A stretch of DNA of 64,000 nt from an uncultured delta proteobacterium (GCA_963814585.1 CAWFDF010000011.1:1-64000), one strand, 5' to 3'; positions 12,201 through 36,564 are shown, counted from the stretch's first letter. The notes: a model not told the origin generated them from the sequence alone. Made by a program: numbers and translations.

Positions 12201-12670
12201 CGAACGCGCCCGGCGGGGTCAGCCGGCCCGTCCAGGCCAGCGACGTGGCGGCGGCCAGCGCGACCAGCACCACGATGCCGACGGCCACCCGCTTGTCGTC
12301 CTCGGGGTGGGCGAACGCCCGCGATCCACACCGGCCGCGGCACGCTGCCCGGCAGCGGGATGCGGCCGAGCAGATGCGCCAGCCCGAGCACCAGCGGCAT
12401 CCGGATCAGCGGTTCGAGCTTGTGCACGTTGCGCAGCGGGGTGCCGTCGGCGTCGAGGAACGTCTGCACCTGATGCGCGATCGGCGAACCGAGGCCGCCG
12501 GAGTAGCCGAGCCGCCAGCAGCACGACGCCGATCAGCAGCATCGTGATCAGCCGGCCGCGGGCGGGCATCGACCGCAACGCCAGGCCGGCCAGGCCGGCC
12601 GCCGCCACCAGCGTGGTCGCCAGCACCGCCACCGACCCGGTGACCAGCGACGCGCCCGCGGTGGCGTTCG
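9228..12670 (-). CDS. aftD: Arabinofuranosyltransferase AftD (Rv0236c), 5'-truncated at junction; many frameshifts
   Basis: FLDADGTPLRNVHKLEPLIR, IPQYWHDAADWL, QVWGNSHDEPLQ, YVVVRNDLDP, F5/8-type AVGQWLQVDF and PESVNPGW/VNGWQQGW motifs. Confidence 0.88.
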
Positions 12671-12849
12671 TTGAAAACAAAAATACGGGGGAATTCCTTG
12701 CAATTCGCAACGGTCAAATCTATTACCCAAGTCAGCAAACAGAAATTAATAAACTGAAGGAACTCCAAACCTCTATGAACGGAAAACGTCGAGTGGTCCA
12801 TATCACGATCATTGGTGAGGACTTCAATGAATCTGGAGATAAGGAATGA
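12671..12849 (+). CDS. Hypothetical protein, C-terminal fragment
   Basis: Open frame ENKNTGEFLAIRNG...GDKE ending in TGA that overlaps the next ATG (ATGA). Confidence 0.5.
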
Positions 12850-13079
12850 GAAAGTTTTTCCTGGTTCGTAACAAAGATGTATCCGGTTGTTCAGGTACCG
12901 GAGTCGTTGCAGAGGGAGTTGTTTTTTCAGACGGGCAGGCCATCTTGAAATGGCTTCGTGAGCCATATTCGCTTGGGATTTACCAATCCATTAAACACCT
13001 GCTTAATGTGCATGGGCACGAAGGTAATACCAAAGTTCAATTTATCGATAGCCCGGTTCGTGTATCGAACCGGCGTTAG
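12846..13079 (+). CDS. Small conserved phage/MGE-type hypothetical protein (DVSGxSGTGxVAEG...HGH)
   Basis: 77 aa; FxLxRxxDVSGCSGTGVVAEGVVFSDG...W...HGHEGNT pattern that I recall from phage hypothetical proteins. Confidence 0.65.
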   Translation: MRKFFLVRNKDVSGCSGTGVVAEGVVFSDGQAILKWLREPYSLGIYQSIKHLLNVHGHEGNTKVQFIDSPVRVSNRR

Positions 13080-13103
13080 TTAGATCTCACAAAGGAGGAT
13101 CAC

Positions 13104-13868
13104 ATGGCAGCAAAAGTCATCACAATTAGCAATCAGAAAGGTGGCGTTGGAAAAACGACCACAGCCGTCAGCCTGGCGCACTACCTGGCCCGCAAAGGTA
13201 ACAAAGTACTTCTCATTGATCTCGATCCGCAGGGACAGTGCGCAACGAATTTGGGTTTGAAACAGGAACAGGGAGCTTTTTATCTACTTGTCATCGCCCA
13301 GGTTTCCCCCAGAGATGTCAATTTTATTCGTGATGTGCAACGTGAATCTGGGCGGGAAAACTTGAGTATCATCCCAGGCGACCAAATGACTGGTTCTGCC
13401 CAAACCACAATCATGGAAAAGCCAATCTCCCATATTCGGGAAACATTACGGGCTTTCCAAAATAGTGTAGATTATGTCATTTTCGACACATCACCTTCAT
13501 TAGGCGGTTTGCAGGAACGGGCTATTTGGGCTGCGGATTCTGTGGTTATCCCTTGTGCAACGGAGTTTGCCTCGCTGGAATCAGCAGCGAACACCATCAA
13601 AACCATGCAAGGCCTCAGGACGGAGAAAGGGTGGAAAGGTGGTCTTTTGGGAATCCTCCCCACTTTTTTCGATGATAAAACCCGTGAATCCCGTAATTCC
13701 ATGAAAGATCTGCACAACCAATTTGGTGACAAAGTGATGCCGCCAATCCATGCAGCCACAGTTCTCAGAGAGTGTTGGTCAACTGGACAAACCATTTTTG
13801 AATATGCTCCCGATTCGAGAGCAGCTCAAGAATACGAAGTATTTGCCGGGCTGGTCAGGAAATATTAG
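13104..13868 (+). CDS. parA: ParA/Soj family partition ATPase
   Basis: Deviant Walker A NQKGGVGKTTT, LIDLDPQG, DYVIFDTSPSLG; AAGGAGG RBS. Confidence 0.93.
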   Translation: MAAKVITISNQKGGVGKTTTAVSLAHYLARKGNKVLLIDLDPQGQCATNLGLKQEQGAFYLLVIAQVSPRDVNFIRDVQRESGRENLSIIPGDQMTGSAQTTIMEKPISHIRETLRAFQNSVDYVIFDTSPSLGGLQERAIWAADSVVIPCATEFASLESAANTIKTMQGLRTEKGWKGGLLGILPTFFDDKTRESRNSMKDLHNQFGDKVMPPIHAATVLRECWSTGQTIFEYAPDSRAAQEYEVFAGLVRKY

Positions 13869-13876
13869 GGGGCATT

Positions 13877-14543
13877 ATGCGTAGAGATGCTTTCTCTCGT
13901 TTGCGAGGTTCTGATGCAGATGAGAATGATTCTATTCAATCATCCAGTCAATCTGCCTTCTCGGTGGACCATCTTCCCCAACCAAAAAGCCCATTGGATT
14001 TTATTCCTTCTGCTGTCCCGACAAAGAAGCGCGACCGGAAATGGGAGAGATCCCACCAGGATGAAGTGGCCACTTATCGCGGGATCATTCCAGAGGCTCG
14101 CCAGGCGTTAGTTTCCCTCGCTGAAATGATAGAAGTTCCGGTGGATGATGTGGCCCGGGCATTTCTTGAATTTGGTGTTTCAAATTATGGGACTGGTGAA
14201 ATAAAGCTAACTCCTTATCCCAAAGCTCAGCGCATGACTTTATTCCCTCAAGAACCAAGGGAGAATGTTGAGACAAAAAAAAGGTGGCTGCAAGAGAGTT
14301 TTTCCTGTTGCTAAAAAGACTGGGAAAAAGCAGAAAAAATCAGAAAGTAAAGCTTGGGAATTTCGTGTGACATATCGTCTTCCCCGCGCCGTGAAAGATG
14401 ACATCAAACAGATAGCCGACCGGCATTATGTTCCTGTCGGGGAATTGGTACTTTACTTTTTTCGCTATAGCCTGGACGCTTACCAGTCGGGTAAATTGAT
14501 CCTTACTCCACATCCCAAGAACACAGGAAATACCCTTTTTTAG
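13877..14543 (+). CDS. Putative ParA partner with two ribbon-helix-helix-like modules (apparent frameshift near 14295)
   Basis: Two similar modules: VATYRGI..EARQALVSLAEMIEVPVDDVARAFLEFG...G.IKLTPYP...TLF and VTYRLP..VKDDIKQIADRHYVPVGELVLYFFRYS...GKLILTPHP...TLF. Confidence 0.6.
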
Positions 14544-14612
14544 ATGCACACAAAATATGGAAATTCATATGTTGGTCAAACTTCGGAAATTAATTATTTG
14601 TGGTTGGCAGTA

Positions 14613-14693
14613 CGTCAGCGGCATTGTAGACGTGCCGCTGACGGTATGTAGACGTTGACGCTGACCTATCCGCTGACGTTGCCGCTGACGTTG
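14613..14693. repeat. Cluster of five CGCTGAC-core repeats (one inverted); candidate centromere/operator
   Basis: Perfect 11-bp inverted repeat CGTCAGCGGCA 14613-14623 / TGCCGCTGACG 14633-14643; CGCTGAC at 14659; tandem CCGCTGACGTTG at 14670 and 14682. Confidence 0.8.
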
Positions 14694-14838
14694 AGCTTCA
14701 CAGAAAGCCCGTAGACAGGTTTATTGAGACAAAGATGAGCAATACACCCCTTAACCGTGAGAGAGTTCCTGAACGCCAATTTTTTGCTTTTTCAATTCGC
14801 ATTTTCTGCACAAATCGGGCCAGGCGAAGTGAGGCAAT

Positions 14839-16971
14839 ATGACAATACCCGAATCTCAAAAATGGTCATCTGAACAGATTTGGGGATATGTCTTGTCGAC
14901 GCTTCAGCTGGATATGTCCAAGGCGAATTTTGATACATGGGTAAAATCCGCTGAGGTCATGTCCTTTGATGGCGAAACCTTCGTTGTTGGGTGTTATAAC
15001 GACTACGGGCGGGAATGGTTGGAAAGTCGGTTAAAGGCAACCATCCAACGAATGATCACCGGAGCAATCAATCGTCCGGTGGTGGTTGAATTTAAATTGT
15101 TCAATCAAGATTATCCACAAATAGTAGAAGCAGACGCAGAAATTGATGATCCAAAAGTGGATCAGGCGAGCGACGCTGAATGCGCTGAACTCGAACCGGT
15201 GTTTGCCTCATTACGCGATGCTCTGATCGAACCGGATCGTGTTGTCAAACTGCCTACCTATTTTTTGCGCTGGCTCCCATATGTTGGTGCCAAGACAATT
15301 TTTGAACTCATGGGTCTCTGGCAGGAATTTTACCTCAACAGCAAAGGCAAACAACCCAGAGCTGGAGAGAAAGTTTCAACACGCATCGAAAGAATTGGAA
15401 TTTGGTCAGGCGTCAGCCGGGCGCAGCTTTTTAGAGACCTGGAAGTAGATCAACCATTATCGTGGTTCATCAAAAAAATTGAGACTGATTATGAGATGGA
15501 TCGAAAGACCGGGCGGGCGAAAAAATCCTCCAACAAGTATGCTTTGTATGGCGTCCCCTTGACCCCGGGTGATGCTGAAGATCTGAGTACCTTTCTTCTT
15601 CAAAATGGAATACGGGAAAATCCTCATCAGGCTCTTCGGATAGCGTTACAGGTTCAACCTGGTGAAATTCTTCAATACCCATATCGCCAACCATCCGAAA
15701 GTTTTAAAATATTGGTTCCCCATCGCAAAACGATCCAGGATGTAATATCCGTTTTGATTGGTCGCCGATTGGATGAGGAGCTATCAGATCTGGTTGATCA
15801 ATTGGCAGATCGCCTTTTGGGAACGGGTGACTTCATCCTTGTCCGGTGGTATTTCCTGAAACACTGGCTTCCAATTCTTGGCCATAACCCGGCGATGTTA
15901 GTCATCCTATTACGCAATCTGTGTTACTTCAACGATGAGACAGGGGAAATTCGGGATGAAGTTTGGATTGAAAAAGGTTATGAAGAAATCGCCGCACGGC
16001 TTGGAATAGATAATCATCGTCAAGTATGGTCAATGGTTTCCAGCAGTGTTCGGACGTGGCGCACCCTCTGAAGCTCATACAGAAAATACAGATCGAGAAA
16101 ACGAAAGGAGGCAGCGGATTAAAGATTCTCTGGCTGCCTTTCTGGAACGAACAGATTATCGTTCGACTGGTCAATCTGGGTATGCCTGGTTTTTCCGAGT
16201 ACAGCGAATGGACACCCTCATCCCCGAACATGAAATGGTGAAACATGCCGCAGCTCATCTTTTTGCTCAGGCTGAAGATCAACAGGTTTTGATAGATTTG
16301 TATTCATTTTTGGAATGGTTGCCGAATGATTGTTTTGAGACTCTCAAAAAAGATCCAATGCTTGTTTTGAGACTGTCAAAAATTGACAATGATTGTATTG
16401 AGACTCTCGAAACCCTATTCAATGATTGTTTTGAGATGGTCAAACCCTTACCGAATGCTTGTTTTGAGACTCTTTTAAAGATTCTTAAAGCCTTTAAAGA
16501 TTCCCAAAAAGATAAAAGATACCTCCACCAACCAAGATTCATTTGGTTTTCGTCGATCATTGCCAAAAGAAGGGGCGGATGGGCGGTATATTTTTCAGGA
16601 ATGGAATTTAAAGTCATTTATTGGCAAATATTAATCCACAAGAATCGTGATGTTCTTCTCAAGCAAGAGGAAAATTCTATTCCCTTTCTGTCCTGGATTC
16701 TCTACGGTATTGCCACATCCGCCATCCAGAATCCTGTTAGCCTGGCAATCTCTAAACTTAAAACATCACCCAAACAAAGCGCTGGGGGAGTTTTCGAGCG
16801 AGTAGCAAGAATACCTGCGGACCAATTTATTAAAAATCTGTAGAAAGAGAAATGTCCTATTGGGGTCCATCAGACACCGATTGGCGGACTATATTCCGCT
16901 CGGTCGACCAAGAGCGGAAACAATTGTTAATCGATATTCTTGGAATTTCATTTCATCAAGCTGGAGAGTGA
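14839..16971 (+). CDS. Candidate replication initiator: N-terminal DnaA domain I plus two winged-helix-like modules, no AAA+ (frameshifts near 16030 and 16840)
   Basis: WGYVLSTLQLDMSKANFDTWVK...YGREWLESRL (DnaA_N pattern); repeated YFLRWLPYVG / YFLKHWLPILG modules each followed by HTH-like helices; internal iteron array; neighbours parA and ssb. Confidence 0.7.
16325..16474 (+). repeat. Five 21-bp direct repeats (iterons), consensus AATG(A/C)TTGTTTTGAGACTCTC
   Basis: Copies start at 16325, 16357, 16388, 16421 and 16454 (periods 32, 31, 33, 33 bp); followed by an AT-rich tract with TTAAAG at 16475, 16485 and 16494. Confidence 0.88.
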
Positions 16972-17071
16972 GTAATGATCTCAAACGAAACTTAGTGCAT
17001 GGGCTGTGGCTCAATTATCAAACGAGCCGTATTGAAAAATCATCACATTCAATTTGGGAAAGGAACCGATT

Positions 17072-17530
17072 ATGCCAATTGGAAATATGACCTGGAATCG
17101 CGGAGATATTACCGGCGATATTTATTACGATTTGATCCGTAAGGATGGAAAACCTGACTTGCCGGTTGTCCGGCTGATCCTGATGATCAATGGCCTGGGA
17201 GAGGTAAAACCTGTCTATGGTTTGAGAATCATTGCTTATGGTGCATTAGCAGAGCTGGCTTATGGCCATCTGCAGAAAGGTAGCCGTATTGGGGTCGAAG
17301 GGCACATCCAGATCCGCGAACGAGAAGATGTTGGCTCGTTCGCTTTTGAAGTGGTGGCTAACCACATTGAATTTATTCGCAAGATTGATTACGAAAAAGG
17401 GAGCCAGGTCATCGCTTCTCTTCGCAACCGAAACATGGCGCAGCCAGTTCCTGGAAAAGAATGGGAAGCAATACAGGAAGTCACCAGCGCTTCGATGCAA
17501 GGCGTCCGAAAACCGGTATGGGTGGAATGA
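17072..17530 (+). CDS. ssb: Single-stranded DNA-binding protein (OB fold), lacking the acidic C-terminal tip
   Basis: IIAYGALAELAYGHLQKGSRIGVEGHIQ...FEVVANHIEFI; AAGGA RBS before ATG 17072. Confidence 0.75.
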   Translation: MPIGNMTWNRGDITGDIYYDLIRKDGKPDLPVVRLILMINGLGEVKPVYGLRIIAYGALAELAYGHLQKGSRIGVEGHIQIREREDVGSFAFEVVANHIEFIRKIDYEKGSQVIASLRNRNMAQPVPGKEWEAIQEVTSASMQGVRKPVWVE

Positions 17531-17534
17531 GCTG

Positions 17535-18065
17535 ATGGAAGAAAAAGGTGATTTTACGATTTCTGAAACCCGATTGCAGCAAATCGGTATCATCTCGTTG
17601 GTTCTGATGATCTTATTTACTTCCATCGGCTATTTTGTTTCTCCGCGTGATGAAAATGACCAACCAGTATTATTGCTTCCTGAGGTAAAAGCCTTTGATG
17701 ACTACCGGATGAAAACTCAGGATTGGTTGATCCAGATAAACACCCTGGATGGAGAGATTGCAAGCATTTTATCAGGAACCAGTCACGGAGACTTGTTTTC
17801 TCAGTCCCACCAGACCCAACAAATGCTTCAGCATGCAGTCGAACTGACAAAAGATATTGATCAGGTGAAAGTACCAGCAGCTGCTTCGGGTATCCATGAA
17901 CAGATGTATTCAACTTCCATGGCTTATCTTGAAGTGGCGCGGATGGTGATGCGCTGGGTCGGTGCGCCTGAACAGGCAACAAAAGACCAAATCGATTTAA
18001 AACTCACACAAGTTCGTCAAAATAAATCAGCCCTGGAGAAAAGCCAATGGATCAATCGTCCTTAA
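17535..18065 (+). CDS. Hypothetical membrane-anchored helical protein
   Basis: N-terminal TM IGIISLVLMILFTSIGYFV followed by amphipathic helices; tightly packed in the operon. Confidence 0.65.
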   Translation: MEEKGDFTISETRLQQIGIISLVLMILFTSIGYFVSPRDENDQPVLLLPEVKAFDDYRMKTQDWLIQINTLDGEIASILSGTSHGDLFSQSHQTQQMLQHAVELTKDIDQVKVPAAASGIHEQMYSTSMAYLEVARMVMRWVGAPEQATKDQIDLKLTQVRQNKSALEKSQWINRP

Positions 18066-19369
18066 CCGATGTTCAGCGCCAACAGGCAGATGCCCTTGCG
18101 AATGCTTATCAGGGTGATATGGACAAAGAAAGCACCCTTCACCGTCAAGATATCAGTCATGCCTATTCGGTGGCTCACAATGCACTCATTTCCCTGATGC
18201 AACTTCTAAACCAGGATGAGGTAGAGAGATTGCAGAAATCAGGCAAATCAATCTACGCAATGGATGACCGTGAAGCTCAAAAATTGATCACCGAATGGAT
18301 AAAAAAGATGCGCGAAAAAGCAATCAATGGCGCATCCACGGCGGATAGAGTTGAGGCTATGGTTTCCCAAATCAAAGCATTAGAAAAGGAAAGGGATCGA
18401 TTACAGAAGGAATCTATCCAACAAAAAGCCATGATAGTAGACCTAAAACAAACTGTTCATGGGTTGAGGGCGCAGGTGGCGACCCTGGAACAGACTTTGG
18501 GTAAGGTGAAGGATAAAGAGAAAGATCGCACTCCCCAACAAGCGGTTGTAGTTCAAAACGTGCCGCCAATGAATCAAGGGATGGCCGAACCGGAGTGGAT
18601 GGCTGATTGGAGAGGAAAAAACACATTCGAACGTGATTCGGAGATATTGCGTATCATAGGTGAAACCGGTTTTTCTAGGCGGCCAGTCATCATCCAAATG
18701 GCAGCGAAAAAATTGGGGAAAAATCCCAATAACACTTCACTGGTCGATGCACTCAATCGCATTGGCGGTGAAGAAAGTGAAAAAGGGCTGCATTTCATCG
18801 AAAAAGTGGAAGGCTTTGAAAAACAGGGTTTCGATCTCGGAGGGGCATTACCGATTATCCTACGATTAACTGAGAGGGGCAGACATGCCTATTGGATGTT
18901 GACAGGTATAAATGCCCGAGAGTGCGAATTTGATGAATTAATCAAACATCATAAGTCACCAGAGCATACCCTTTTAAATTTAATGGTTCGAGATCAACTG
19001 GTCAATATCGGTGGTTATGAAATATTACTCAACTCACCTGGCCTTACACTACCAGATGGAGAAAAATTCGTTCCAGATATTGTCGCTCTGGACACGGCTA
19101 AAGCAGAAGTGCTCTATATTGAGGTGGAGCGCAATGCTGGGAAGGATGAAGCGTACCGCATTCAAAAATGGAGAAATTTTTATTCCGCTACTCATGGGAA
19201 GATATACATTTACTGCGACCGTAGCTCTTTTATGAAAAACAAGTTGATCGGCGAAGTCAACCAGGCTTTGAAAGATTATCATTATTCCTCTTATTTCAGT
19301 AATTACGAAGATGTGTTTAAAGGAATTCGTGGACCGGATGGCGGTATCTGGATCCAAAAGAGAGATTAA
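18047..19369 (+). CDS. Coiled-coil + wHTH + PD-(D/E)XK nuclease; Replic_Relax/MOB_C-like relaxase candidate
   Basis: Heptad region around aa 100-160; LRLTERG wing; HKSPEHTLL; PD-x14-EVER-x3-K matches the D-x(6-17)-E-x-E motif of MOB_C relaxases. Confidence 0.62.
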   Translation: MDQSSLTDVQRQQADALANAYQGDMDKESTLHRQDISHAYSVAHNALISLMQLLNQDEVERLQKSGKSIYAMDDREAQKLITEWIKKMREKAINGASTADRVEAMVSQIKALEKERDRLQKESIQQKAMIVDLKQTVHGLRAQVATLEQTLGKVKDKEKDRTPQQAVVVQNVPPMNQGMAEPEWMADWRGKNTFERDSEILRIIGETGFSRRPVIIQMAAKKLGKNPNNTSLVDALNRIGGEESEKGLHFIEKVEGFEKQGFDLGGALPIILRLTERGRHAYWMLTGINARECEFDELIKHHKSPEHTLLNLMVRDQLVNIGGYEILLNSPGLTLPDGEKFVPDIVALDTAKAEVLYIEVERNAGKDEAYRIQKWRNFYSATHGKIYIYCDRSSFMKNKLIGEVNQALKDYHYSSYFSNYEDVFKGIRGPDGGIWIQKRD

Positions 19370-19386
19370 TTTTATTGCTTGCAACC

Positions 19387-19500
19387 CCTATAGGTATTTT
19401 TGAAATCGAAAAAACCTAACCGAAAATACCAGGTTAATTCGGCGAAAATACCCGGTGGAGTCTATAGTAAGAAAATACGACTATAGAAATCGAAAATAAC
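19387..19500. repeat. Direct and inverted repeat cluster; candidate oriT or operator
   Basis: GAAAATA at 19422, 19444, 19471, 19492; palindrome CCTATAGG 19387-19394; GGTATTTT 19393 / AAAATACC 19423; TCTATAGT 19461 / ACTATAGA 19480. Confidence 0.55.
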
Positions 19501-19529
19501 TACGGAAAGAAATCATACAAGGAGGACAG

Positions 19530-19805
19530 ATGGGGGAAACTTTAATTCGGGTTGAACCTGCAAAACATATGTACCGTTGGTATGCAGTGGGCATCCAAAC
19601 CACTTTGGTGGATGGTATTGCGGTTGTGATTGGTTGGGGTAGTCTAAAGTCATCGCTCCAACAATGGAGAACTCATCAAGTTAATTCTTTGGATGAGGCA
19701 AATATGATTAAGGACAAAATTCTCCTTACAAAATTTAAAAAAGGTTATGTTGGCGTAGTTAGACCTGTAAATTACCATGCTTCCCGCAATAGAAATTATG
19801 GATAA
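19530..19805 (+). CDS. Stand-alone WGR-domain protein (WGS variant)
   Basis: RVEPAKHMYRWYAVGIQTTL...IGWGSL...KFKKGY pattern; AAGGAGG RBS. Confidence 0.7.
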   Translation: MGETLIRVEPAKHMYRWYAVGIQTTLVDGIAVVIGWGSLKSSLQQWRTHQVNSLDEANMIKDKILLTKFKKGYVGVVRPVNYHASRNRNYG

Positions 19806-19837
19806 AAAGCCAGTTTTTAGTTACAGATCTGATCAAT

Positions 19838-20492
19838 TCATCCTAAGCTTTTAACAAGCAGGTCAACTCCGGTAGAAGGATTGGGGAAATCTTCCCAGTA
19901 TCCCTCATGCAGAGAGCGAAGTGATTCGGCGTTATCGATTGCCTGCCCGGTTTGTTCTTGTACAAGGCGGTAAACCGCCATAGATTTAGAGTAATTCGGA
20001 ATATGATGGGCAAGACTATGTATTACTTCTACCGCGTTGGTGAATGCTCTGCCGGTGCGTTCAAAATGTAATAACAGCCAATATTCAAAAGCCGGATTGG
20101 ACAAAGCCAGTTGAAAATTGCGTTTTCCTGGCAAATGCCAGGGCTTGTTCCAGGGAGTGGTGAGTACCAACCTGTTCAATATCAAATACACACCAGGCTT
20201 CGTCATTTGTTGGATCCCAATCCAGTTTTTGCCTTTCAGCTTCCATGTATTGGACCAGGTAGATAGGAGTAACTAAATTTTCTCCTCCTGGGATAATCAG
20301 AACACGGATATTTTTGCGTCGCAAAGCGCTCCGAAGTGCATTGAAATAATTCGGCTCGGTTTGTTTTCCTTCACATACAATCAGGATGGTTTTTTTAGGG
20401 GTCAGCAGGTTCCCACGACGCTGATAGTTTTCTCGATTTTTACCACGGTCGAACAGTGGATCTCGGCCTGATGGTTTCTTCTTACGGCTCAT
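19838..20492 (-). CDS. rloB: RloB-family (TOPRIM-like) protein; apparent frameshift near 20130
   Basis: ILIVCEGKQTEPNYF, WCVFDIE and SNPAFEYWLLLHF motifs; C-terminal NPSTGVDLLV. Confidence 0.85.
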
Positions 20493-21714
20493 GAGTACCT
20501 TCTCCTGCAAAAAGTGAGAAGACATCGCCAAGGAATGGGATGGCACCATACCGACCTTGCAAGTAACCTTTGGCTAGTGATTCGCCCTTCCGTGGACTGT
20601 AATCCAAAAGCGAATACAGGTGAGTTGCACCGTTCTGGTCTTTCTCTGTAAACCAGATTTGATCTCGTCGAAAGAGAGCGTTATCGAGTAAGGTCGTGTC
20701 GTGTGTATTGAAAATCAATTGAGCGTTTTTTTTATTGACTGCCGGGTTGTGAAACATTTCTACAATTGCACGAACCAGAAGTGGGTGCATACTGGCATCC
20801 ATCTCATCAACAATTAAGATATCACCTTTCTCGAGCGCCGTTAAAACCAATTGGCTGAGGTAGAGAATATGCCGGGTACCGTTAGATTCAGAGGATAATG
20901 GGAACGCCACGACTGTTTTATCCTGAGCTTGATGTAACACTTCAATTCTTTCGCCAACCATTTGTAGTTTATTATCTGGCAGAGCCGGGTCTTTCATCCG
21001 GTAATCCCAGATGCCCAGGTCTGCATAACGTAACAAATCACGAATACCCTCATGGTGGCTTTCATCCAGGGTATCGATAAAGAGGTTGGTAGTCAGGAGT
21101 GGGTTTAGCTCAAGCAAAACACCTGAGAACCACTGGTAGACTGCAGAAAGTATCGGGTGTTTGAAGGTGGCTGCTACAGAAAGGAAAAGCGCATTGTCAC
21201 GGGTCAGCGTACTGATTTTTTCGTTTTGACCTTTGAGTGATGGGCCAAAGTAATACTCTTCCTTCTGGGTGTCTTTGTTCCAGGCGCGCTGGAAATATGG
21301 CACTGTTCTGCCTTTGGGTGAAGCATACAAATATTCAGTCCAAACCCGTTTGCGATCTACCGATAGACCATATTGATAACGGATACCATCCTGGATAAAC
21401 GTGATTTCAAAAGTAGAGGGTGCATTTGCACTGGTTGGGTCCAGGAGGAATGGCTGAGCATCGATGAGGTCATCCGGTTTTCGATTAGCTGATTCGCGAA
21501 CAAAATCTCGTAAAAATTTTAGAGCTTCCAATATCTTTGTTTTGCCTGAAGCGTTGGGGCCATAAATCACCACACTACGCAGCAATTTCATTTTGGCCGA
21601 AGCAGGGGTTGCGATGATATTGTCAGAAAGGGTTTGATCTGAACTGGCATTCAGACTTAATACCTGTTCATCTTTGAAACAGCGGTAATTTTGCATTCGA
21701 AATTCGACTAACAT
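20482..21714 (-). CDS. AAA_21/ABC-type ATPase (RloA/AbiLi-like)
   Basis: IYGPNASGKT, ESNGT signature, IVDEMDASMHP, QLIFNTHD, FRRDQIWFTEKD and YLQGRYGAIP; overlaps rloB start. Confidence 0.88.
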   Translation of the reverse strand: MLVEFRMQNYRCFKDEQVLSLNASSDQTLSDNIIATPASAKMKLLRSVVIYGPNASGKTKILEALKFLRDFVRESANRKPDDLIDAQPFLLDPTSANAPSTFEITFIQDGIRYQYGLSVDRKRVWTEYLYASPKGRTVPYFQRAWNKDTQKEEYYFGPSLKGQNEKISTLTRDNALFLSVAATFKHPILSAVYQWFSGVLLELNPLLTTNLFIDTLDESHHEGIRDLLRYADLGIWDYRMKDPALPDNKLQMVGERIEVLHQAQDKTVVAFPLSSESNGTRHILYLSQLVLTALEKGDILIVDEMDASMHPLLVRAIVEMFHNPAVNKKNAQLIFNTHDTTLLDNALFRRDQIWFTEKDQNGATHLYSLLDYSPRKGESLAKGYLQGRYGAIPFLGDVFSLFAGEGTHEP

Positions 21715-21741
21715 CGCGTATACCTCCTTGACTATACTACA

Positions 21742-21770
21742 ATATTACAATAAAACTGCAAAAAAGTCAA
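21742..21770 (-). promoter_or_regulatory. Sigma70-like promoter of the RloA/RloB pair
   Basis: TTGACT-N17-TAATAT on the minus strand, upstream of the AAGGAGGT RBS. Confidence 0.5.
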
Positions 21771-21855
21771 ATAGATAAGAGGTCAGTGTCGATTAAATAT
21801 TTATTGTCGGAATTTAAAATGGTGACTGACGTGCAAACAAATATCCGTAAATCTA

Positions 21856-22511
21856 TCATCTATGGTTAGAGGCATCATAGTTCTTTATAATTGCTTGATC
21901 GTCTGATTCGTAGTCGGCAAATTGTCCTAAAATGTAAGTATTAAATCCATTGTTTGTCAGATGATGAATTTGGATTTTTCCGCCAATGTATACCCTCTCA
22001 TTTTTAGGGAGAGTATTCTGTATTGCCCTTTGCTCGTCCATCATTTTAATAATATCCTTAGGAAATTCAAACCCTTCAGGAATTTGGCACACTGGCTTAA
22101 CCCCCACACCATATTGTAGAGATTCTGATTTGAAGCTCTTTGTGGACCTGTAAGCGTATGAATGAATTGTTCCGTCTTCTTCGGAAAAACCAAAATGGTA
22201 GACTGTGGTCGTGATATTCTCCTCAATTGAGAATTCTTTTTTGTAATCACTCCATATATTATTAAGAATACTGGGAGTATGATAATTTAAGTTGTCTATA
22301 CCTCGAACAATCATCTTATCGGTTAATTGCGATAAACCATCTACCGAGAACCCCGCCCATTCCAGTGCCACAAATAAGCATTCGTAGGTGAGGAACGATA
22401 AAATGTCGGCTTTGTCAGTGAACATAAACGGTTCACCATTTGTTGTTGTCGCAAGTGTATCTGTCGCGACAAATACCTGATCTTTATTGGTATAAAAATT
22501 AGTGATGACAT
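21856..22511 (-). CDS. Proteasome-beta-like Ntn-hydrolase candidate (true start 22511; frameshifts near 22495, 22405 and 22322)
   Basis: Reconstructed N-terminus MSSLIFYTNKDQVFVATDTLATTTNGEPFMFTDKA..IVPHLRMLICGTG gives Ser1/Asp17/Lys33 after Met removal; C-terminal YIGGKIQIHHLTNNG. Confidence 0.55.
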
Positions 22512-22664
22512 AATTTTCTATGAATACCTTTTGGGGTGAAATGCGATAACAATTGTTCGTAAGAAGATAGCCAACTGGATGAGGGGGGCATCCAAATGGC
22601 TATGTGATTAGTATACTATTGACGGTTCTTTTTCGACAAGAATTATAAAAGATAAGTTCTACAT

Positions 22665-23086
22665 TCAGATTATGTGTTTATAATCTACTAAAAACTCTTG
22701 TGGAAGTAGCACTTTGATCGCGGAATTGCCCATAAAAGCGAAGTGTTTCAAATTTCCAGTAATAAGAACCTCAGCATGGCTGCAAATTGCGATCTCTGCA
22801 AATGGTAAATCCCCTGGGTCGTTTATAAGATCTTGTTGGAATTCCACCGGTTGACTTTGAACCCACAAGGCTGAATAAGCAATAAACCTGAGAGTCGCAT
22901 CAGATTCGAGTCGGAAAAGAACATTAACCGCGGCCGATGAAGCACTTGAGTATATTCCTCAAAAATTCGTTCATCGAGCGCTAATCGGATTTTGCTGTCT
23001 AAAACGGCATTCAGGATGATGGCCGGATTGCTATTGCGCTTAAGCAGTGAAGAAACGAGTACGTTTGTATCGAGAACGATCAGCAT
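22665..23086 (-). CDS. PIN-domain toxin (putative type II TA); apparent frameshift near 22900
   Basis: IVLDTNVLVS, EEY..VL.RP, DPGDLPF and LITGNLKHF motifs. Confidence 0.85.
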
Positions 23087-23087
23087 A

Positions 23088-23506
23088 TTAAGATTGTTTC
23101 CTCGTTTCCCGAATTTCTGCTTCGATGTCTTCCTCCGTCAATTCAACAGAAGAAACCGAATCCTCGGCAGAGCGAATTGCTTCAACCGCAGCTTGTGCCT
23201 TCAACTGTAGCGATTGAAAAAGCATAATCCGTTCTTCGGGAAGCAAGTTAAATTCCTGGTCAGAACATCGGCACTCACGTTTTGAGAACGAGCAATCACA
23301 TCCACAATTTGAATTCCCCTGGCTTGCAAAGATTTGCCTAGTGTAGTTAATAGATCGTCGGCTGCCAGATCTAGTGTTTTAATCACCACACCATTTTCTG
23401 TACTGACAAAGGTAACCAAATCACCTTTTTTCAAATCAGCTGTCGGCGAATCGTTCAGGGGTATGGTTACCTGACCCTTTTCTTGAACTCGAACTGTGCT
23501 AATCAT
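23088..23506 (-). CDS. AbrB/MazE/SpoVT-family antitoxin (frameshifted)
   Basis: VRVQEKGQVTIP...LKKGDLVTF; C-terminal LTEEDIEAEIRETRKQS; stop lies 1 nt before the PIN start; GGAGGT RBS. Confidence 0.8.
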
Positions 23507-23520
23507 TTGAACCTCCAAAA

Positions 23521-23548
23521 GTCATACCGTCATACTTTTATTATAACA
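23521..23548 (-). promoter_or_regulatory. Extended -10 promoter and direct-repeat operator of the TA operon
   Basis: TGtTATAAT at 23548-23540 (minus); GTCATAC twice at 23521 and 23529. Confidence 0.5.
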
Positions 23549-23582
23549 CTGTTTTTGAGTGGATTAAATTTGTTGTTCATGC

Positions 23583-24044
23583 TTATTTGCCTGCGACTAG
23601 TACCGGCCTCATATTACAAGCAGGATGATGTTTAGCCAGCATGGTCCAAGATAATCTCTCAATTACATTCCACCAGATTCCCGGTATCTCATGCCATTTT
23701 GCGCCGGCAACATTCTTTGGGATATCCGGATCCGGGGCAGTCACATGAGCAAGAAAACCTTTTGGATTCACGGCCACATCAACATAGACCACTGAATAGA
23801 TTGGGCCAATTAAACCTAAGGACAAGAACATACCCCATCCACATCGAGAAGGCTGAATAGTTTTGGCTGCATCAATCCGATCAGCCATGAATTCCCAGTA
23901 GGTCAAACCCTGTGGGGCCCCGCTAACCTGCATCGGTTGATTGCCCTTGTACGCAACAAAGAGAAATGAAGCGATCAGGGTTATGGTCACCAGGGTGCCA
24001 ATCGTTTTACCGATAAGTCCAAAGAACATGCTTATCAATTTCAT
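23583..24044 (-). CDS. Hypothetical membrane protein
   Basis: ATG 24044 after AGGAG; two hydrophobic segments; 153 aa. Confidence 0.65.
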   Translation of the reverse strand: MKLISMFFGLIGKTIGTLVTITLIASFLFVAYKGNQPMQVSGAPQGLTYWEFMADRIDAAKTIQPSRCGWGMFLSLGLIGPIYSVVYVDVAVNPKGFLAHVTAPDPDIPKNVAGAKWHEIPGIWWNVIERLSWTMLAKHHPACNMRPVLVAGK

Positions 24045-24051
24045 TTTTCTC

Positions 24052-24273
24052 CTATTCTGTGCGGTCGATTTTGTATTGATCTTGAGGATCAATATTTTCG
24101 CGAACGGCTCGATTAAATCGAATTTCTTCTCGGTACATTCGATCCAGAGCGACTTCGAGTACATCGCTCTCGCTTCTTCCCATATATAGCGCCATCTCTT
24201 TTAATTGGCCTATGCCTGCTACGCTTAAACGGAATGATTTAACTGGTTTTCCTGGAGAATTTGTTCTTGGCAT
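24052..24273 (-). CDS. Ribbon-helix-helix (CopG-like) regulator
   Basis: KSFRLS..GIGQLKEMALYMGRSESDVLEVALDRMY; AAGGAGG RBS; divergent from the putative transfer operon. Confidence 0.72.
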   Translation of the reverse strand: MPRTNSPGKPVKSFRLSVAGIGQLKEMALYMGRSESDVLEVALDRMYREEIRFNRAVRENIDPQDQYKIDRTE

Positions 24274-24444
24274 TTTTGCCTCCTTATAGCGTATAGTAAT
24301 ACTAGAGTATACATAAGTCAATAGGCAATTTCTATTTTAAGCCAGAAGTAACCTTGGAAATCTAAATTAAATTGCTTTGACATTTTGATAATCAATCCAT
24401 ACCGCAGGTTCTAATCTAATATTCGGATTATTATAAACTGCAAC

Positions 24445-24477
24445 TTGGCAAAACGTAAACACAATGCTATAATAGCA
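24445..24477 (+). promoter_or_regulatory. Near-consensus sigma70 promoter of the putative transfer operon with a palindrome over the -10 box
   Basis: TTGGCA (24445)-N17-TATAAT (24468) with TG extension; TGCTAT-A-ATAGCA palindrome 24465-24477. Confidence 0.7.
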
Positions 24478-24541
24478 CTATTATTACCGTGATGTAATTA
24501 CCTGGTCGCAACCATCGGCAGCTAATTTCTTTTTGATCCCT

Positions 24542-24600
24542 AAAGCGACCACTTGTGAGACTTGTTTTTTGTAGTCTTGCAGGTGGTCGCTTTTATTTTG
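24542..24600 (+). terminator. Intrinsic terminator inside the 5' leader (attenuator candidate)
   Basis: 21-bp stem 24542-24562 / 24573-24593 whose three non-Watson-Crick positions are all G-U on the + strand; followed by a U-rich tract; lies between the promoter and the GGAGGTG RBS. Confidence 0.75.
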
Positions 24601-24628
24601 TTAATTTCAACCCTTACGGAGGTGTATC

Positions 24629-25172
24629 TTGCGTGATGTCCATCTATCTCGAAAAAACCTGGTTATGCTGGCCAGCATCGTTCTGGTGGTTGTACTTGGA
24701 ATCCTGACGGTCAACTTTCTGGGAACCAATGGTTCCACAGCAACACCGACCCCTTCACCTGATGATACGAAGGCTTCGGATGCAGTCATTGCCGGTGTGG
24801 AGGCGTTCTACAACATCAATTATCAGGAAGGGAAGGATACCATGGCTTAATCGCTTCTGCGCAGTCAGTAGCAACAGTGGGTGCCAATTCCTGAAAACCG
24901 GTTCTACCGCCTTGTGGAAACGATTTGAAGACATGCAGACCATTACCCAGGGCAAAGCAATGCCTCAGGAGAAAGTGCGTTCGACTGCAGATGAACAGGT
25001 TTGGCGAGTCTCGATCACATTAACCCAGCCACTGCCAGGCAGTGAAAAAACCAGCGATGAAGCGTATGCCCTGGTCGTGCGAGAGAAGGATGTTTGGAAG
25101 TTCGATCGTTTCCTGATGGATAAAGAAATCAAGGGTCTAAAAAGTGGAACGAAACAGGGACAAACAAAATGA
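24629..25172 (+). CDS. Membrane-anchored exported protein, possibly NTF2-like (VirB8/TcpC-like); frameshift near 24843
   Basis: TTG start after GGAGGTG; single TM, PTPSP linker, then helices followed by strands ending ALVVREKDVWKFDRF. Confidence 0.45.
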
Positions 25173-26443
25173 GTAAGACCCCAAGGTCATTTTTTTCTTT
25201 TTTACTCGTTGTAATACTTCTCTCCGCCATCACCCCCAACGTGGCTATGGCCCAAGGCCAGGATCCCTGGGGAGAAGTGTTTGACTCCAACGGCAACCTG
25301 GTTCCCGGGATGATCGACCTGGGTGTGACGACGGAAAACCCATCCTGGATGAATGTCGAACTGCCCTTCAATCAATCCTTGAGCCTGGAAGCCAACTACC
25401 ACCGGTTTCAAACGGAAAGCGGCAATATCGTCGTTTTGCCTTCGGCATCGACTTTATTCTTCATGGCGATGAATCCACAGGAAAGCGGTCTTGCCAATTC
25501 GGTGGGAATGGTCGGAAATGGATATGGCGGCATTATTACTTTCCTGGGGGCAGTTGCCGGCGACAGCATTGATTGGAAGCGTCTGCAACAATCCCATCCG
25601 GAATATCAGCAACCGGCGGATTTTTGGAACGCGGTCATCAATGGACAGGAAAATGTGTGGACCTGGTTTTCCGGTTTTGGTTTTATCACCAACTTACTCT
25701 CGATGTCCTGGAATGATGCCGCTCTTCGTTCTGCTTACTTGATGTACCTGAATGGCGCGAAAGATTGTGCGTCGATCCCCGGAGGCTGTTCCGGTGTGGC
25801 TACCCCACCGCCTCCGCCCAGACTATGCCCGGATACTTCAATCACCGTTCAACAGCCGACAGCAACCATTCAGAAGATTGCTCCCAATAATCCATTGGTG
25901 GTCGGGCAGGATACCCAGGATCGTCGCGGCGCGGATGTGCAGGTTTCCATTACGGTCCCGCCGGTGATCTTTACCTGGTATGAACCGATTTACGAAGAAC
26001 AGGAAGTTTGTACGACACCGTTAAACGGTGGAACACCTACCTGTACGACCGAATCGGTCTTTAAGGAATGCAGACAGCATGTCGAGCACCTGCCGGATGC
26101 GGTGGCTTCTGTTCAGGCGACGGCATCTCTCAGTGGTGACAGCAAAGCCTGGATACAGAGCAAATTGGGGCAAACCCATTATGGCGCTTATATTCATCAG
26201 GAAAGCTTTACCCTGATCCCCGGTTACGGAAATTGGTCGGGTGGATGTGATGGCGGTGGAACCTGCCGGGCGACTGGCACTGCTTTGCGAGTTCCCTTTG
26301 CGGATCCCGGCACCTTTGAACTGCGCATGCGTGGTATGACAAGAGGAACCAGCTTTATGGGGATGCCGATCACCCAGCCGCGCACCCTCAGTGCGGATGG
26401 AACATTACAGGTGTATGTCACCCTGCCGGCTCTGGTGCCTTAA
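25169..26443 (+). CDS. Secreted Cys-containing protein of unknown function
   Basis: Signal peptide (..NVAMA-Q); poly-Pro linker; paired Cys; beta-rich C-terminal half. Confidence 0.7.
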   Translation: MSKTPRSFFSFLLVVILLSAITPNVAMAQGQDPWGEVFDSNGNLVPGMIDLGVTTENPSWMNVELPFNQSLSLEANYHRFQTESGNIVVLPSASTLFFMAMNPQESGLANSVGMVGNGYGGIITFLGAVAGDSIDWKRLQQSHPEYQQPADFWNAVINGQENVWTWFSGFGFITNLLSMSWNDAALRSAYLMYLNGAKDCASIPGGCSGVATPPPPPRLCPDTSITVQQPTATIQKIAPNNPLVVGQDTQDRRGADVQVSITVPPVIFTWYEPIYEEQEVCTTPLNGGTPTCTTESVFKECRQHVEHLPDAVASVQATASLSGDSKAWIQSKLGQTHYGAYIHQESFTLIPGYGNWSGGCDGGGTCRATGTALRVPFADPGTFELRMRGMTRGTSFMGMPITQPRTLSADGTLQVYVTLPALVP

Positions 26444-26560
26444 ATGATCCACTTGATTCTCAGTATCCTTGCCGCTGCTGGTCTGCTCTTGCTCTTGGGA
26501 ATTCTGGGCTTTGGTGCGCTCCTCATCCTGTGTACATCCGGTGAACCGGATGAAGAATAA
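26444..26560 (+). CDS. 38-aa hydrophobic peptide (below the ORF-track cutoff)
   Basis: ATG immediately after the upstream TAA; MIHLILSILAAAGLLLLLGILGFGALLILCTSGEPDEE; fills the gap exactly. Confidence 0.5.
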   Translation: MIHLILSILAAAGLLLLLGILGFGALLILCTSGEPDEE

Positions 26561-26572
26561 ATTACGAATGTT

Positions 26573-27256
26573 ATGAACGATATTTTTGTCCTCTTTGGCG
26601 ATTTCATGGCAGCTCTGCCGACCTATCTGCTCAATGGTCTGTTGGTCAGCGTGTACGGGTTGATTGACATTGCGCCGGCGCTATTGAGCATCGGATGCGC
26701 GGCTCTGATCGCCTTTCTGATCGACCAAAATATCCAAAATCGCGCCATGTTTCGACCCGGGCGTGGGGGTAGGGAGATCGCCTCTCCCGACCCTCACACC
26801 GCCCAGGTGATGACCATTACCGTATTGGTGATTTGGGTTTTATGCCAATGGGGAATGGGCGCTCCGGTGCCCTGGATTGGGGCGGCGATGTGGCTTTTTG
26901 GGGCAATCGCTTTGCTGGTCGTTCACACCCAGGAACCGACCATCCTCTGGAATGTGAAATCCGGGATCGCGATTTATGCTCTGGCCGTGATTGGCAGCCG
27001 CCTTTACCTGGCCTATACAGCCCAACTATCGGCAGAACAATGGGCAGCCTTGATCGGTTCGGCGGAGAGTGCAGCCTCGGTTATTTCCAATACGCGCGGC
27101 AATGTCACCACGATCATCCTTTGGGCTTTATGGCTGGTTATTCCTCTTGGTTATTTTGCGATGCTGCTTCAGCAGATTTTTCTCAACCCGATGTCTCTTG
27201 TCAACCCGATGGCGAGTATGCAAGAACTCTTACAGCGGTATCGGGTACGGCGATAG
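26573..27256 (+). CDS. Polytopic membrane protein (putative transfer-apparatus component)
   Basis: 227 aa with about six hydrophobic segments. Confidence 0.7.
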   Translation: MNDIFVLFGDFMAALPTYLLNGLLVSVYGLIDIAPALLSIGCAALIAFLIDQNIQNRAMFRPGRGGREIASPDPHTAQVMTITVLVIWVLCQWGMGAPVPWIGAAMWLFGAIALLVVHTQEPTILWNVKSGIAIYALAVIGSRLYLAYTAQLSAEQWAALIGSAESAASVISNTRGNVTTIILWALWLVIPLGYFAMLLQQIFLNPMSLVNPMASMQELLQRYRVRR

Positions 27257-27390
27257 GGCAGTAAATGGAAACGATTCGACTGGATACAGTGGTCTCGTTG
27301 GATTTACTACTCTATTCCATTGTGGATGAGTGGCTAATTATTTCTCAACGTAGGCTGGTCAATCTTATCTTGAACGTCAGGAGGTCAATT

Positions 27391-27681
27391 ATGAAGGAAA
27401 TTGTGGAAGGGTTACGTGGTCCGGCTTTGGGTGTGGTCTTTGTGATCATTGCTCTGGCCGGAACCATCGTCGTTGCTGCTTTTGCGGCTCTGGTAGCTCA
27501 GATGAGTTTGCTGCTGCGGTTGCGGCCCCGGGAAACCAATCCCAACACGCAAACGAACAACGGTTATCGGGTTGCCGAATCTCGCCAATCCTCACCTTCT
27601 ACGCTTTATCGCTCTCCCAAGGATTCGGTTTCCGAGCAGACAAGCGCAGATGTGATCGACGGAATTTGGTGGCAGGTGTAG
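27391..27681 (+). CDS. Small membrane protein
   Basis: AGGAGG RBS before ATG 27391; long hydrophobic stretch followed by a polar tail. Confidence 0.6.
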   Translation: MKEIVEGLRGPALGVVFVIIALAGTIVVAAFAALVAQMSLLLRLRPRETNPNTQTNNGYRVAESRQSSPSTLYRSPKDSVSEQTSADVIDGIWWQV

Positions 27682-27788
27682 TAAAACGATACGTTCATCC
27701 TGAACACAGGGCATCTCTTGCGCACGCAAGGGGTGTCTCGCGAGCTCACCAGGCCTGTCTGGCGATCTGACGAGACATCTGGAGATAT

Positions 27789-29160
27789 ATGGCAAATATT
27801 CTGAACAATATCTCTCACAAAATTCCATGGATCCGGTCATCCCAACCGCTGACCATTCCGGATGATTTACGCATCCAGCAGGCCGGGATTCAATTCGATC
27901 CAGACCGGCATGAGCTGGACTACATCTGGCTCAATATGGTCGAACAGGAAGCCGGGCAAATCTACAGTGGTTATCGGGTGATTCGCCTTTTGCAATTCAA
28001 GTACATTCCGATGGATGTTCGACGTGATGCCGGGTTGTTGCAGAAGATGCGCACGGCGCTGCGCGGTGTTTATGGCGCCGGGGTCAACCTGGTCTACCTG
28101 GCAGCCGGCATCTTTGACCCGGCGATTGGGATTGTGCAGTGTTATGGGGTGACTTCCTTTGCTGAGACACGTGATTTGGCTGCAGAGCGTTCACGACGTG
28201 ACCTGGCAGTGCTGAAATCGACCCTGGCCGGAGCATACCGCCAGACCCGCCTGGAACCCTTGACGGTTGAGATCGCGGAATGGATTGTCAAGGCGTTCCA
28301 GACCATGTCATTCCCGATCGTTACCGTCGGGCATCCGGACCCTCGTGAAAATGCCCGTGGAGGGGATGCAAAACTGAATGATCCCCTGGCCGGATCCACT
28401 CAAATGCAGCAATTCTCCCTCCAGCAGAACGAACTGCTCTTTCGCGGGATGAGCAGCCTGCGGGAAGAATTTCTGCTCATGCTATTGGCCAATCATGTCC
28501 GCCTGGAAGATATCGCCACGATGCTGGCAGCCCAGGCGGAAAATACATCGGTCTATGCTTCTCGCCAGATGGGCGTGCGAGCCGCATCGTTTGGCGTTAG
28601 CCTACCTGCGATCCTGACCGGCGGCTTGTCCGAGAATGCCTCCAATTCGTATGGCACCAATCATTCGACCGGTCTGGCCGAAGGTCAGGGATCTACCGAT
28701 GGCGTAGCTGACACAACCGGCCAGGCACATACGACTGGGCATGCCAGCACGCGCGGCTGGTCGCATACAGTCGGCGTAGCAGAGACAATGGTACCGGACA
28801 GGCCAATACCGTTGGGTTCGCGGAAACGAATGGGGTTGCCCAGACGCATGGCGTAACCGTAACCGATGGCACTTCCCATACCGACTCGTCCAGTTCGGGC
28901 ACGACCCATTCAGATAGTTCCGGTTACGGCGTCAATGGTGGGCTTGGCGGCAGTATTGCGCCGGCAGGCGTAGGGCTCAGCGGAAACGTGGGTGGAAATG
29001 CCAATTGGGGCAGTTCAGATGGCGTTACCAGTAGCGCCGGATCGGCGGATACGACGTCGCATTCCGTGTCGGTCAGCGACTGCAACCAGCACAAGTCATG
29101 CGACTACAAATAGTCAGGCGCAAACCAATTCCGCCAGCCATTCGATCACTCAGTCGGAAC
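27789..29160 (+). CDS. Large protein with a Ser/Thr/Gly-rich periodic region (3'-truncated; frameshifts near 28787 and 29070)
   Basis: Globular N-terminal ~280 aa, then hexad repeats ([30 protein letters not shown] ... [24 protein letters not shown]). Confidence 0.65.
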
Positions 29161-29835: not shown

Positions 29836-29858
29836 GCGAGCAGCATACACCTCGTGGT

Positions 29859-30041
29859 CTAGGGAGCCCGGGCCGGGCCGGCGGGCGTGGCCGCCGGGGA
29901 GGCTGGCCGCCGAAGGCCTGCCGGAGCTCGGGGCCGAAGACCGCCAGCGCGCCGCCGGCGGCCAACGCCAGGAAGGCGACCAGCAGCAGCAGCTCCGCCA
30001 GCCCCTGGCGGGAGGGCGGGGCCGGATTCCTGGTTGCTCAT
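29859..30041 (-). CDS. Small Flp-pilin-like membrane peptide (frameshifted)
   Basis: Alternative frame reads [34 protein letters not shown], resembling GQGxxEY-hydrophobic-FG Flp pilins. Confidence 0.35.
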
Positions 30042-30065
30042 GACCAACCGTGAACCGCGGCCTGG

Positions 30066-30460: not shown

Positions 30461-30598
30461 GACGTCCTTCTCCTGGGCCGCTTGCACCGCGCCGGAGGGC
30501 GGCGGTGGTCCGGGCACCGCTGTGGGAACCGCGGGATCTAGTCGGATCGGGCGGTTACGTCAACCCCCTGGCCCCGCCCGGCCGGGCCGCCTCGCCGC

Positions 30599-32167: not shown

Positions 32168-36564
<4,397 letters not shown>

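Follow-up and report, generated by a model that had tools for sequence, protein, structure and literature searches.

An integrative element of Anaerolineae in a chimeric contig, with a HerA-like ATPase ahead of Tad genes and a possible transfer route outside the standard type IV systems

How can an integrative element pass from cell to cell with none of the standard transfer machinery? Transfer by HerA and a nuclease has a precedent in the ICETh1/TdtA transjugation system of Thermus thermophilus. According to its description (PMC5365140), this integrative and conjugative element (ICE) is integrated at a tRNA gene between 47-bp repeats, donation requires an FtsK-HerA hexameric ATPase and nucleases, and neither a type IV secretion system (T4SS) nor a relaxase takes part; it is 14 kb long and apparently non-replicative, works with NurA and Tth111II, and relies on the competence pili of the recipient. 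That paper also describes the double-stranded DNA transfer of Streptomyces, in which the one translocase TraB does without a T4SS. As for relaxases, those of the MOBC type (pAD1 TraX, CloDF13 MobC) are PD-(D/E)XK enzymes that form no covalent intermediate (PMC12857230). Here we describe a block at positions 12671-29160 of a 64,000-nucleotide stretch, called the window below (GCA_963814585.1, CAWFDF010000011.1:1-64000, the start of contig C11 of an assembly of 4.34 Mb and 73% GC). The block is the 16.5 kb next to the attachment (att) site of a large integrative element of Anaerolineae.

This element differs from ICETh1 in its size, 77-126 kb, and in carrying an initiator, genes for partition, Tad pili and membrane proteins of its own. 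An actinomycete ICE (AICE) is a replicative integrative element; from TraB and AICEs the present element differs in that its pump is not FtsK and that Tad pili and a nuclease are present. In its PD-(D/E)XK fold and its PD...ExE...K motif the nuclease is like MOBC relaxases, but it has a long N-terminal coiled coil, no coupling protein beside it and a score below the Replic_Relax cut-off. The Tad genes (cpaB, cpaE, cpaF, tadB, tadC, tadE/G and an A24 peptidase) follow the usual order of Tad/Flp (type IVc) loci, but they often form two sets and stand, within an ICE, directly behind four genes called t1-t4 here and a HerA-like ATPase. An operon with bitopic, polytopic and small membrane proteins ahead of a large ATPase, together with a cell-wall hydrolase, recalls the Gram-positive T4SS (pCW3 Tcp, mating-pair formation (MPF) types FA/FATA) and R388 Trw, yet beyond the P-loop no homology to TcpA/C/D/E/F/H or TrwB/G/I/K is detectable. 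The ATPase belongs to NCBIfam NF033849 (ser_rich_anae_1), a family named only 'serine-rich protein'. We put at roughly 0.5 the probability that the element transfers itself with the help of Tad pili, pumped by the HerA-like ATPase and without a standard T4SS.

That the element is an ICE we hardly doubt. Genomes of species were scanned for loci of the ATPase, and the best 80 of 188 loci were kept for counts; nearly all of these 80 are titled Chloroflexi or Anaerolineae, besides one Desulfonema and one 'bacterium', which agrees with the Anaerolineae origin proposed in a preliminary description of this DNA. When 301 Chloroflexota genomes were sampled, NF033849 scored above its threshold in 6, the centre genome included. 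Six related elements were compared in stretches of 100-200 kb, and four of them were tested for ends (the contig of G004 ends before the far end). In all four, direct att repeats of 46, 79, 46 and 21 bp bound 126, 77, 121 and 122 kb and lie at tRNA-Met or tRNA-Ser; tyrosine or serine recombinases adjoin the repeats in relatives. The mobile, ICE-type nature that had been suggested is thus upheld. Relatives such as G001 have their att site a few hundred bases farther out than the left junction, 12671, so that the piece in the window stops short of it. A search for att repeats in G048 and G162 found none; G162 has a compact version of about 34 kb from integrase to parA.

Over 36-54 kb, the copies of the element in Leptolinea, Flexilinea and Bellilinea show 91.6-94.6% identity, and their ATPases are 98% identical, while rpoB identity among the same three genera is 70.5-74.0%. 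Because the identity of the element is far above that of rpoB, it has spread horizontally, and recently, between genera of Anaerolineae. Integration between tRNA repeats with recombinases alongside, a conserved core and spread between genera are established.

The six elements share one gene order: a 77-amino-acid open reading frame (ORF), parA, its partner, the initiator, ssb, a membrane protein, the nuclease, variable cargo, a divergent pair of regulators, t1-t4, the ATPase, cpaB, cpaE and cpaF. Five of the six go on with tadB, tadC, a second Tad set, TadE/G, a protein with Ig/PKD domains and a lytic transglycosylase; most of the Tad part after cpaF is lost in G002. Conserved synteny, by which the earlier proposal of a mobile element was to be judged, is therefore present. 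Farther along the elements are a beta clamp, RadC, a DUF6094-SNF2 protein and recombinases; in two of them the beta clamp, RadC, a Rad52-like protein and the DUF6094-SNF2 methylase-helicase form a conserved block (G001:C1:427147-439531; G004:C71:143218-153358). The core features in the window are as follows, with counts among the 80 loci.

12846..13079, + strand: 77-amino-acid ORF ahead of parA; phrog_7499; 60-77% identical in relatives
13104..13868, + strand: ParA partition ATPase; PF13614, E 4e-39; 60-84% identical in the six elements
13877..14543, + strand: putative ParA partner; a single gene of 222-231 amino acids in relatives, two frames here
14626..14691, + strand: candidate centromere (parS-like), six spaced repeats of 11-12 nt
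14839..16975 (end approximate), + strand: putative initiator of replication that begins with a DnaA domain I; frameshifted here, about 700-740 amino acids in relatives
16324..16485, + strand: five iterons within the initiator gene, spacing 32/31/33/33
17054..17530, + strand: single-stranded DNA-binding protein (SSB; gene ssb); PF00436
17535..18065, + strand: conserved membrane protein with a single pass, encoded between ssb and the nuclease gene
18047..19369, + strand: coiled coil, winged helix and PD-(D/E)XK nuclease; candidate MOBC-like relaxase
24629..25172, + strand: t1, single-pass protein of about 180 amino acids; split here
25169..26443, + strand: t2, exported cysteine-rich protein outside known families; 56/80 loci
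26573..27256, + strand: t3, polytopic membrane protein, candidate channel; 62/80 loci
27391..27681, + strand: t4, small membrane protein directly before the ATPase; 29/80 loci
27789..29160, + strand: serine-rich HerA-like ATPase, N-terminal part; truncated at the junction, with an error at 28786

Among the 53 loci with 4.5 kb downstream of the ATPase, 47 have Tad genes there; among the 55 with 3.5 kb upstream, t2 is present in 53, t1 in 48 and t3 in 47. Relatives carry CpaB, CpaE, CpaF, TadB, TadC, TadE/G and a prepilin peptidase, all of which would lie beyond the cut in the window; TIGR03819, the NCBIfam model of TadA family ATPases associated with conjugal transfer, is the top match of both CpaF copies, with 148 and 130 bits, below its cut-off of 373. 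The ATPase is encoded on only 3 of 72,556 plasmids. On pB6464 and pRUMAL01, megaplasmids of Alkaliphilus and Ruminococcus (Bacillota; nuclease E 8.5e-21 and 7.9e-17), the series ssb, membrane protein and nuclease recurs, and then ATPase, cpaB, cpaE, cpaF, tadB, tadC and peptidase. A weak t3 homologue is found on pRUMAL01 (E 4.5e-6), and a Flp major pilin is annotated on pB6464; the latter is typed as non-mobilizable, and pRUMAL01 has a MOBP relaxase elsewhere. On an 898-kb plasmid of Pontibacillus (L134:10382-16016), ssb stands with two genes for hypothetical proteins and with a distant homologue of the ATPase (E 4e-44). The plasmid pXO16, considered as a precedent, gained no support: the literature search met no paper that links it with Tad, and the plasmid search gave no match. 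Because SSB, nuclease, membrane proteins, HerA-like motor and pilus stay together across two phyla, and because no other transfer genes were found on the elements, it is quite probable that this conserved module serves transfer.

It is to be asked what kind of motor the ATPase is. The full-length protein has about 1180 amino acids and 233 homologues, the best of which, P0001, is 95% identical to the piece in the window and scores 1369 bits against NF033849 (cut-off 650; the cut piece itself 345). Walker A and B motifs are kept. Its profile finds only HerA/DUF87 ATPases in PDB (best E 1.4e-6), low-complexity matches to the serine tract being disregarded; serine, threonine and glycine make up 49% of residues 261-520. 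The preliminary description placed ATPases of the coupling and VirB4 types past the truncation, an expectation that gains no support: the VirB4 profile PF19044 has no match in any of the five genomes with complete relatives, and the coupling-protein profiles PF12696 and full-length PF10412 have none inside the elements. What follows instead is one HerA-like ATPase, begun inside the window as its last ORF, and then Tad genes. PF01580 (FtsK) matches lie outside the conserved core, in G005 within the cargo cluster, and the sole full coupling-protein gene in the searched genomes is at G002:C3:254 kb, far outside the element. The earlier impression that there is neither a standard Rep family nor a standard MPF type is supported.

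Might the module nevertheless be a very divergent T4SS of the monoderm kind? On this view, the main rival and in our judgement the less likely one, t1 would be VirB8-like, t3 VirB6-like, t4 VirB3-like and the lytic transglycosylase VirB1, the serine-rich ATPase would be VirB4 doubling as coupling protein, a MOBC-like relaxase would nick, single-stranded DNA would move, and the Tad pilus would only stabilise mating pairs. The gene order, with a small membrane protein and then a large ATPase, speaks for it, and so do the transglycosylase in the core, the SSB gene adjoining the nuclease, a weak AAA_10 match in 28 of 30 ATPases, and the nearest named Atlas clusters of t1, which include SnoaL_4 with a score of 0.84; the last hints at an NTF2-like fold and is a lead only. 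Nevertheless, neither PF19044 nor any VirB4 or TrwB chain among the PDB profile matches was recovered, and alignments by hhalign against single references, a comparison of low sensitivity, gave E values of 0.12 (TrwK) and 0.29 (TcpF) for the ATPase, 0.4-0.58 (TrwG/TcpC) for t1 and 0.39-0.52 (TrwI/TcpH) for t3. Profile searches for channel proteins like VirB8, VirB6 and VirB3 had no match, the profiles of t1 and t3 met nothing meaningful in PDB and Pfam, and the Atlas search with t2 gave no usable match. A hydrophobic ORF of about 38 amino acids is seen before t3 (window 26444-26560), and one of 66 amino acids at a like place on pB6464.

The nuclease was correctly recognised beforehand as PD-(D/E)XK; the structure model (pLDDT 82) consists of a coiled coil, a winged helix and a restriction-like domain. 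The winged helix resembles TubR (Z 9.5, root-mean-square deviation 2.3, 84 aligned residues) and the restriction-like domain SdaI (Z 7.9, deviation 3.8, 114 aligned), while Foldseek with the model gave no match at E<=0.001 and a wide structure search was dominated by the winged helix. The motif of MOBC relaxases is D-x-ExE-x-K, and the catalytic motif is kept in 15 of 17 aligned nuclease members and on both megaplasmids. When 21 reading frames from the mob region of CloDF13 were compared, the highest-ranking (E 0.00086) was a fragment after mobB with the same motif, which we take to be MobC, a name that the record itself does not bear. The Replic_Relax profile search inside the elements had no match. 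The nuclease copies of G048 and G162 are so divergent that the genome search missed them and a more sensitive one found them. In the same two genomes a protein of 468-492 amino acids with winged helix and nuclease motif stands near the initiator (G162:C7:44651-46057, G048:C1:2033718); it is possible that it replaces the motif-less nuclease in function.

A different possibility is that the Tad-ATPase module serves adhesion, competence-like uptake or contact-dependent protein delivery, carried as a fitness trait, and that the element spreads by other means, such as a helper element, vesicles or uptake of released circles. Tad loci usually serve adhesion, the long Ser/Thr/Gly tract is unusual for a DNA pump, and members of the initiator family are also seen with an FtsK gene and no adjoining Tad (G003:C1). 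We nevertheless regard this as improbable: it is the module, not the cargo, that forms the conserved core of the six elements and of the compact G162 version, the linkage to ssb and nuclease is kept across two phyla, and other genes for transfer were not found in the elements.

If self-transfer by Tad and HerA is the right reading, the following course may be imagined. A recombinase would excise a circle; the initiator, with its DnaA domain I, would bind its own intragenic iterons and recruit the helicase machinery of the host, and ParA, its partner and the 12-nt repeats would segregate the circle. An attenuator would release the transfer operon. Tad pili and the Ig/PKD adhesin might then draw cells together while the lytic transglycosylase opens the wall, the MOBC-like nuclease, with SSB, would cut the circle, and the single HerA-like ATPase would pump DNA via a channel of t1-t4, thus combining the jobs of VirD4 and VirB4. 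Tentatively, and with slightly less than even confidence, one may go further and see here a new class of bacterial conjugation machine common to Chloroflexota ICEs and Bacillota megaplasmids, in which a Tad pilus takes the place of the mating-pair system, one ATPase is both receptor and pump, a restriction-like nuclease replaces the HUH relaxase, and an undescribed initiator family borrows DnaA domain I.

Several points weigh against self-transfer of this kind. All steps from excision to pumping are inferred, and no origin of transfer (oriT) was identified in the element. Six of the 53 loci have no Tad genes adjoining the ATPase, the Tad region is broken by cargo or insertions in G002 and G003:C7, no Tad gene is near the Pontibacillus homologue, and the ORFs of at least 60 amino acids in the Anaerolineae elements include no recognised Flp pilin. 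As for the nuclease, the CloDF13 match has a probability of 23.5%, Replic_Relax matches only 1 of 17 members (E 0.004, below cut-off), and the homologues of G048 and G162 have lost the catalytic motif. Finally, a HerA-like score is compatible with VirB4 ancestry, because VirB4 and coupling proteins are themselves placed in the FtsK/HerA superfamily (PMC12857230).

Why does an Anaerolineae element stand in an assembly of 73% GC? The block is a genuine molecule of another organism that was joined into the contig by chimera, and the truncation mentioned earlier, at 29160, is a chimeric junction. At 12671 the GC content drops from about 72% to 46%, and at 29160 it rises again, both borders being sharp. 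The contig start, 1-35864, is a chain of four unrelated pieces, probably one chimeric long read:

1-3000: piece 1, 34% GC
3001-12670: piece 2, actinobacterial, with an AftD gene (PF11847) cut at the junction
12670..12671: left chimeric junction between the actinobacterial aftD piece and the element, seen from the GC step and a short-read contig
12671-29160: piece 3, the mobile-element block
29160..29162: right chimeric junction between the element and the noisy C4 copy, seen from the C4 alignment and a short-read contig
29162-35864: piece 4, a 92.3% copy, with 93 gaps, of host contig C4:80920-87654

Parts of the block are present in 20 short-read runs of 13 studies, mostly of lake and sediment, and four of these runs were aligned with it. 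Depth over 12671-29160 is even in the four. At the left junction, the alignment of contig 1 of run X1 starts at 12671, with 55 of its 667 nt left over; at the right one, contig 30 of run X7 aligns up to 29159 and leaves 118 of 2646 nt unaligned. It is very hard to believe that the 73% GC host instead acquired the block as a true genomic island, as its place in contig C11 without N gaps might suggest: genes are cut at both junctions, the flanks are mutually unrelated, the right one is a noisy duplicate of C4 (a sigma-54 regulator cut right of the block is whole in C4:80920-87654), the block has no att site or integrase, short-read contigs cease to match at both junctions, and the remainder of the ATPase gene is absent from the assembly. 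The split genes of the block are mostly sequencing errors, because the indels at 16514, 16616, 16640, 20123 and 28786 are contradicted by all four runs. With such a chimeric start, other findings in window 1-35864 need care.

Other low-GC pieces of foreign look stand by contig ends of the same assembly (G000:C13:142251-152750 with type II secretion genes, C16:105251-109750 with RHS-like repeat genes) and are likely further contamination; the idea that the element continues in these tails was dropped, as they carry unrelated genes and gave no match. A repeat of about 185 bp at window 42250-42435 has many copies across the host genome and is probably a miniature inverted-repeat transposable element or a repetitive extragenic palindromic-like element.

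Among the maintenance genes, the names parA and ssb given beforehand are confirmed by PF13614 and PF00436. The tandem ribbon-helix-helix genes proposed after parA are one gene in relatives, that fold is unsupported, and Pfam and PHROG searches of this ParA partner had no match. The repeat cluster behind it is found at the same place in G001, G002, G004, G005 and G003:C7. The initiator matches PF11638 (E 3e-6) and, in a profile search, DnaA domain I (E 8e-21), and the recognised part is the first 90 residues only. DnaA domain I contacts the helicase machinery. The family counts 2591 representatives at E<=0.001, many perhaps via the DnaA domain only, and 134 at 1e-30; a first locus scan with the initiator as query gave no loci. 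A homologue (E 4.5e-83) adjoins parAB on the circular 180-kb Chloroflexota plasmid CP069395.1.

The iterons announced earlier are real, with the correction that they lie inside the initiator gene. The spacing 32/31/33/33 is kept in four of six homologues, the other two having four copies. Could these 33-nt repeats be simply repeats of the protein? Tests of frame and codon overturned this: one copy stands in another reading frame, and identical residues have identical codons in 165 of 192 cases in the iterons against 660 of 1711 elsewhere, as counted in four homologues whose pairings are not independent. The intragenic repeats are thus under constraint at the DNA level, as expected of iterons, and the initiator shows two features of the iteron type, constrained direct repeats and a homologue on an autonomous replicon. 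At G003:C1:602822-610118, behind a distant initiator copy, come two genes for membrane or exported proteins and those for an ATPase of the FtsK family, ParA and an integrase; this may be a small element driven by FtsK beside another Tad element.

Between the nuclease and t1, the window holds cargo, regulators and the leader of the transfer operon:

19530..19805, + strand: WGR-domain protein, variable; PF05406
19838..21714, - strand: cargo RloA/RloB, an AbiL-like anti-phage pair; RloB split by the error at 20123
21856..22425, - strand: cargo protein; phrog_13702 the sole match
22665..23518, - strand: cargo AbrB/MazE-PIN toxin-antitoxin pair; frameshifted here
23583..24321, - strand: divergent pair of a small DNA-binding-like regulator and a two-helix membrane protein; 25/80 and 35/80 loci
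24445..24600, + strand: extended -10 promoter and attenuator-like leader

The WGR protein, RloA/RloB (AAA_21, PF13707; PADLOC AbiLi/AbiLii) and the PIN/AbrB pair (PIN_3, AbrB/MazE) had been named rightly; the last is 71-72% identical to a pair adjoining parA in G004. The supposed Ntn hydrolase at 21856-22425 finds no such backing, with no match in Pfam, NCBIfam, PADLOC or PDB. As for the promoter noted before the plus-strand operon, a site at 24445-24473 matches the extended -10 pattern in 11 of 12 positions, best among 26 sites, a count at the chance expectation of 25.8, yet the -10 is conserved in relatives. The leader (window 24465-24600) fits one pattern in 23 of 49 loci and has a terminator hairpin at 24542-24593 with an alternative pairing of 6 bp. 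In 13 chosen sequences, the terminator stem is 87% paired and 5 of 12 pairs are changed on both sides, while the alternative (antiterminator) pairing is invariant and thus uninformative. An Rfam search of the leader had no match. Attenuation of a conjugation operon has reportedly been seen in pLS20. In G005 the cargo slot after the nuclease (G005:C1:1022775-1054000) is occupied by a large gene cluster, probably for type VII secretion, that includes a triple-FtsK (EssC-like) protein.

A full-text literature search, with subscription journals and supplements outside its range, found nothing that describes the element, that treats NF033849 as an ATPase of transfer, or that gives an account of conjugative elements of Anaerolineae, bacteria that abound in digesters, sediments and aquifers. 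The ideas put forward here are testable, since some carriers are in culture: Leptolinea HRD-7, Flexilinea flocculi TC1, Longilinea arvoryzae and Ruminococcus albus 7. The initiator with its iterons could yield a cloning replicon for Anaerolineae. Between genera of this class, the elements carry cargo for metal transport, defence and secretion. If the Tad-HerA module moves DNA, it would be a route of gene transfer missed by relaxase (MOB) and MPF typing, and the spread of some 'non-mobilizable' megaplasmids could be explained; and if it represents a new class of conjugation machine, current typing would class elements of this kind as non-mobilizable, the label that pB6464 bears.

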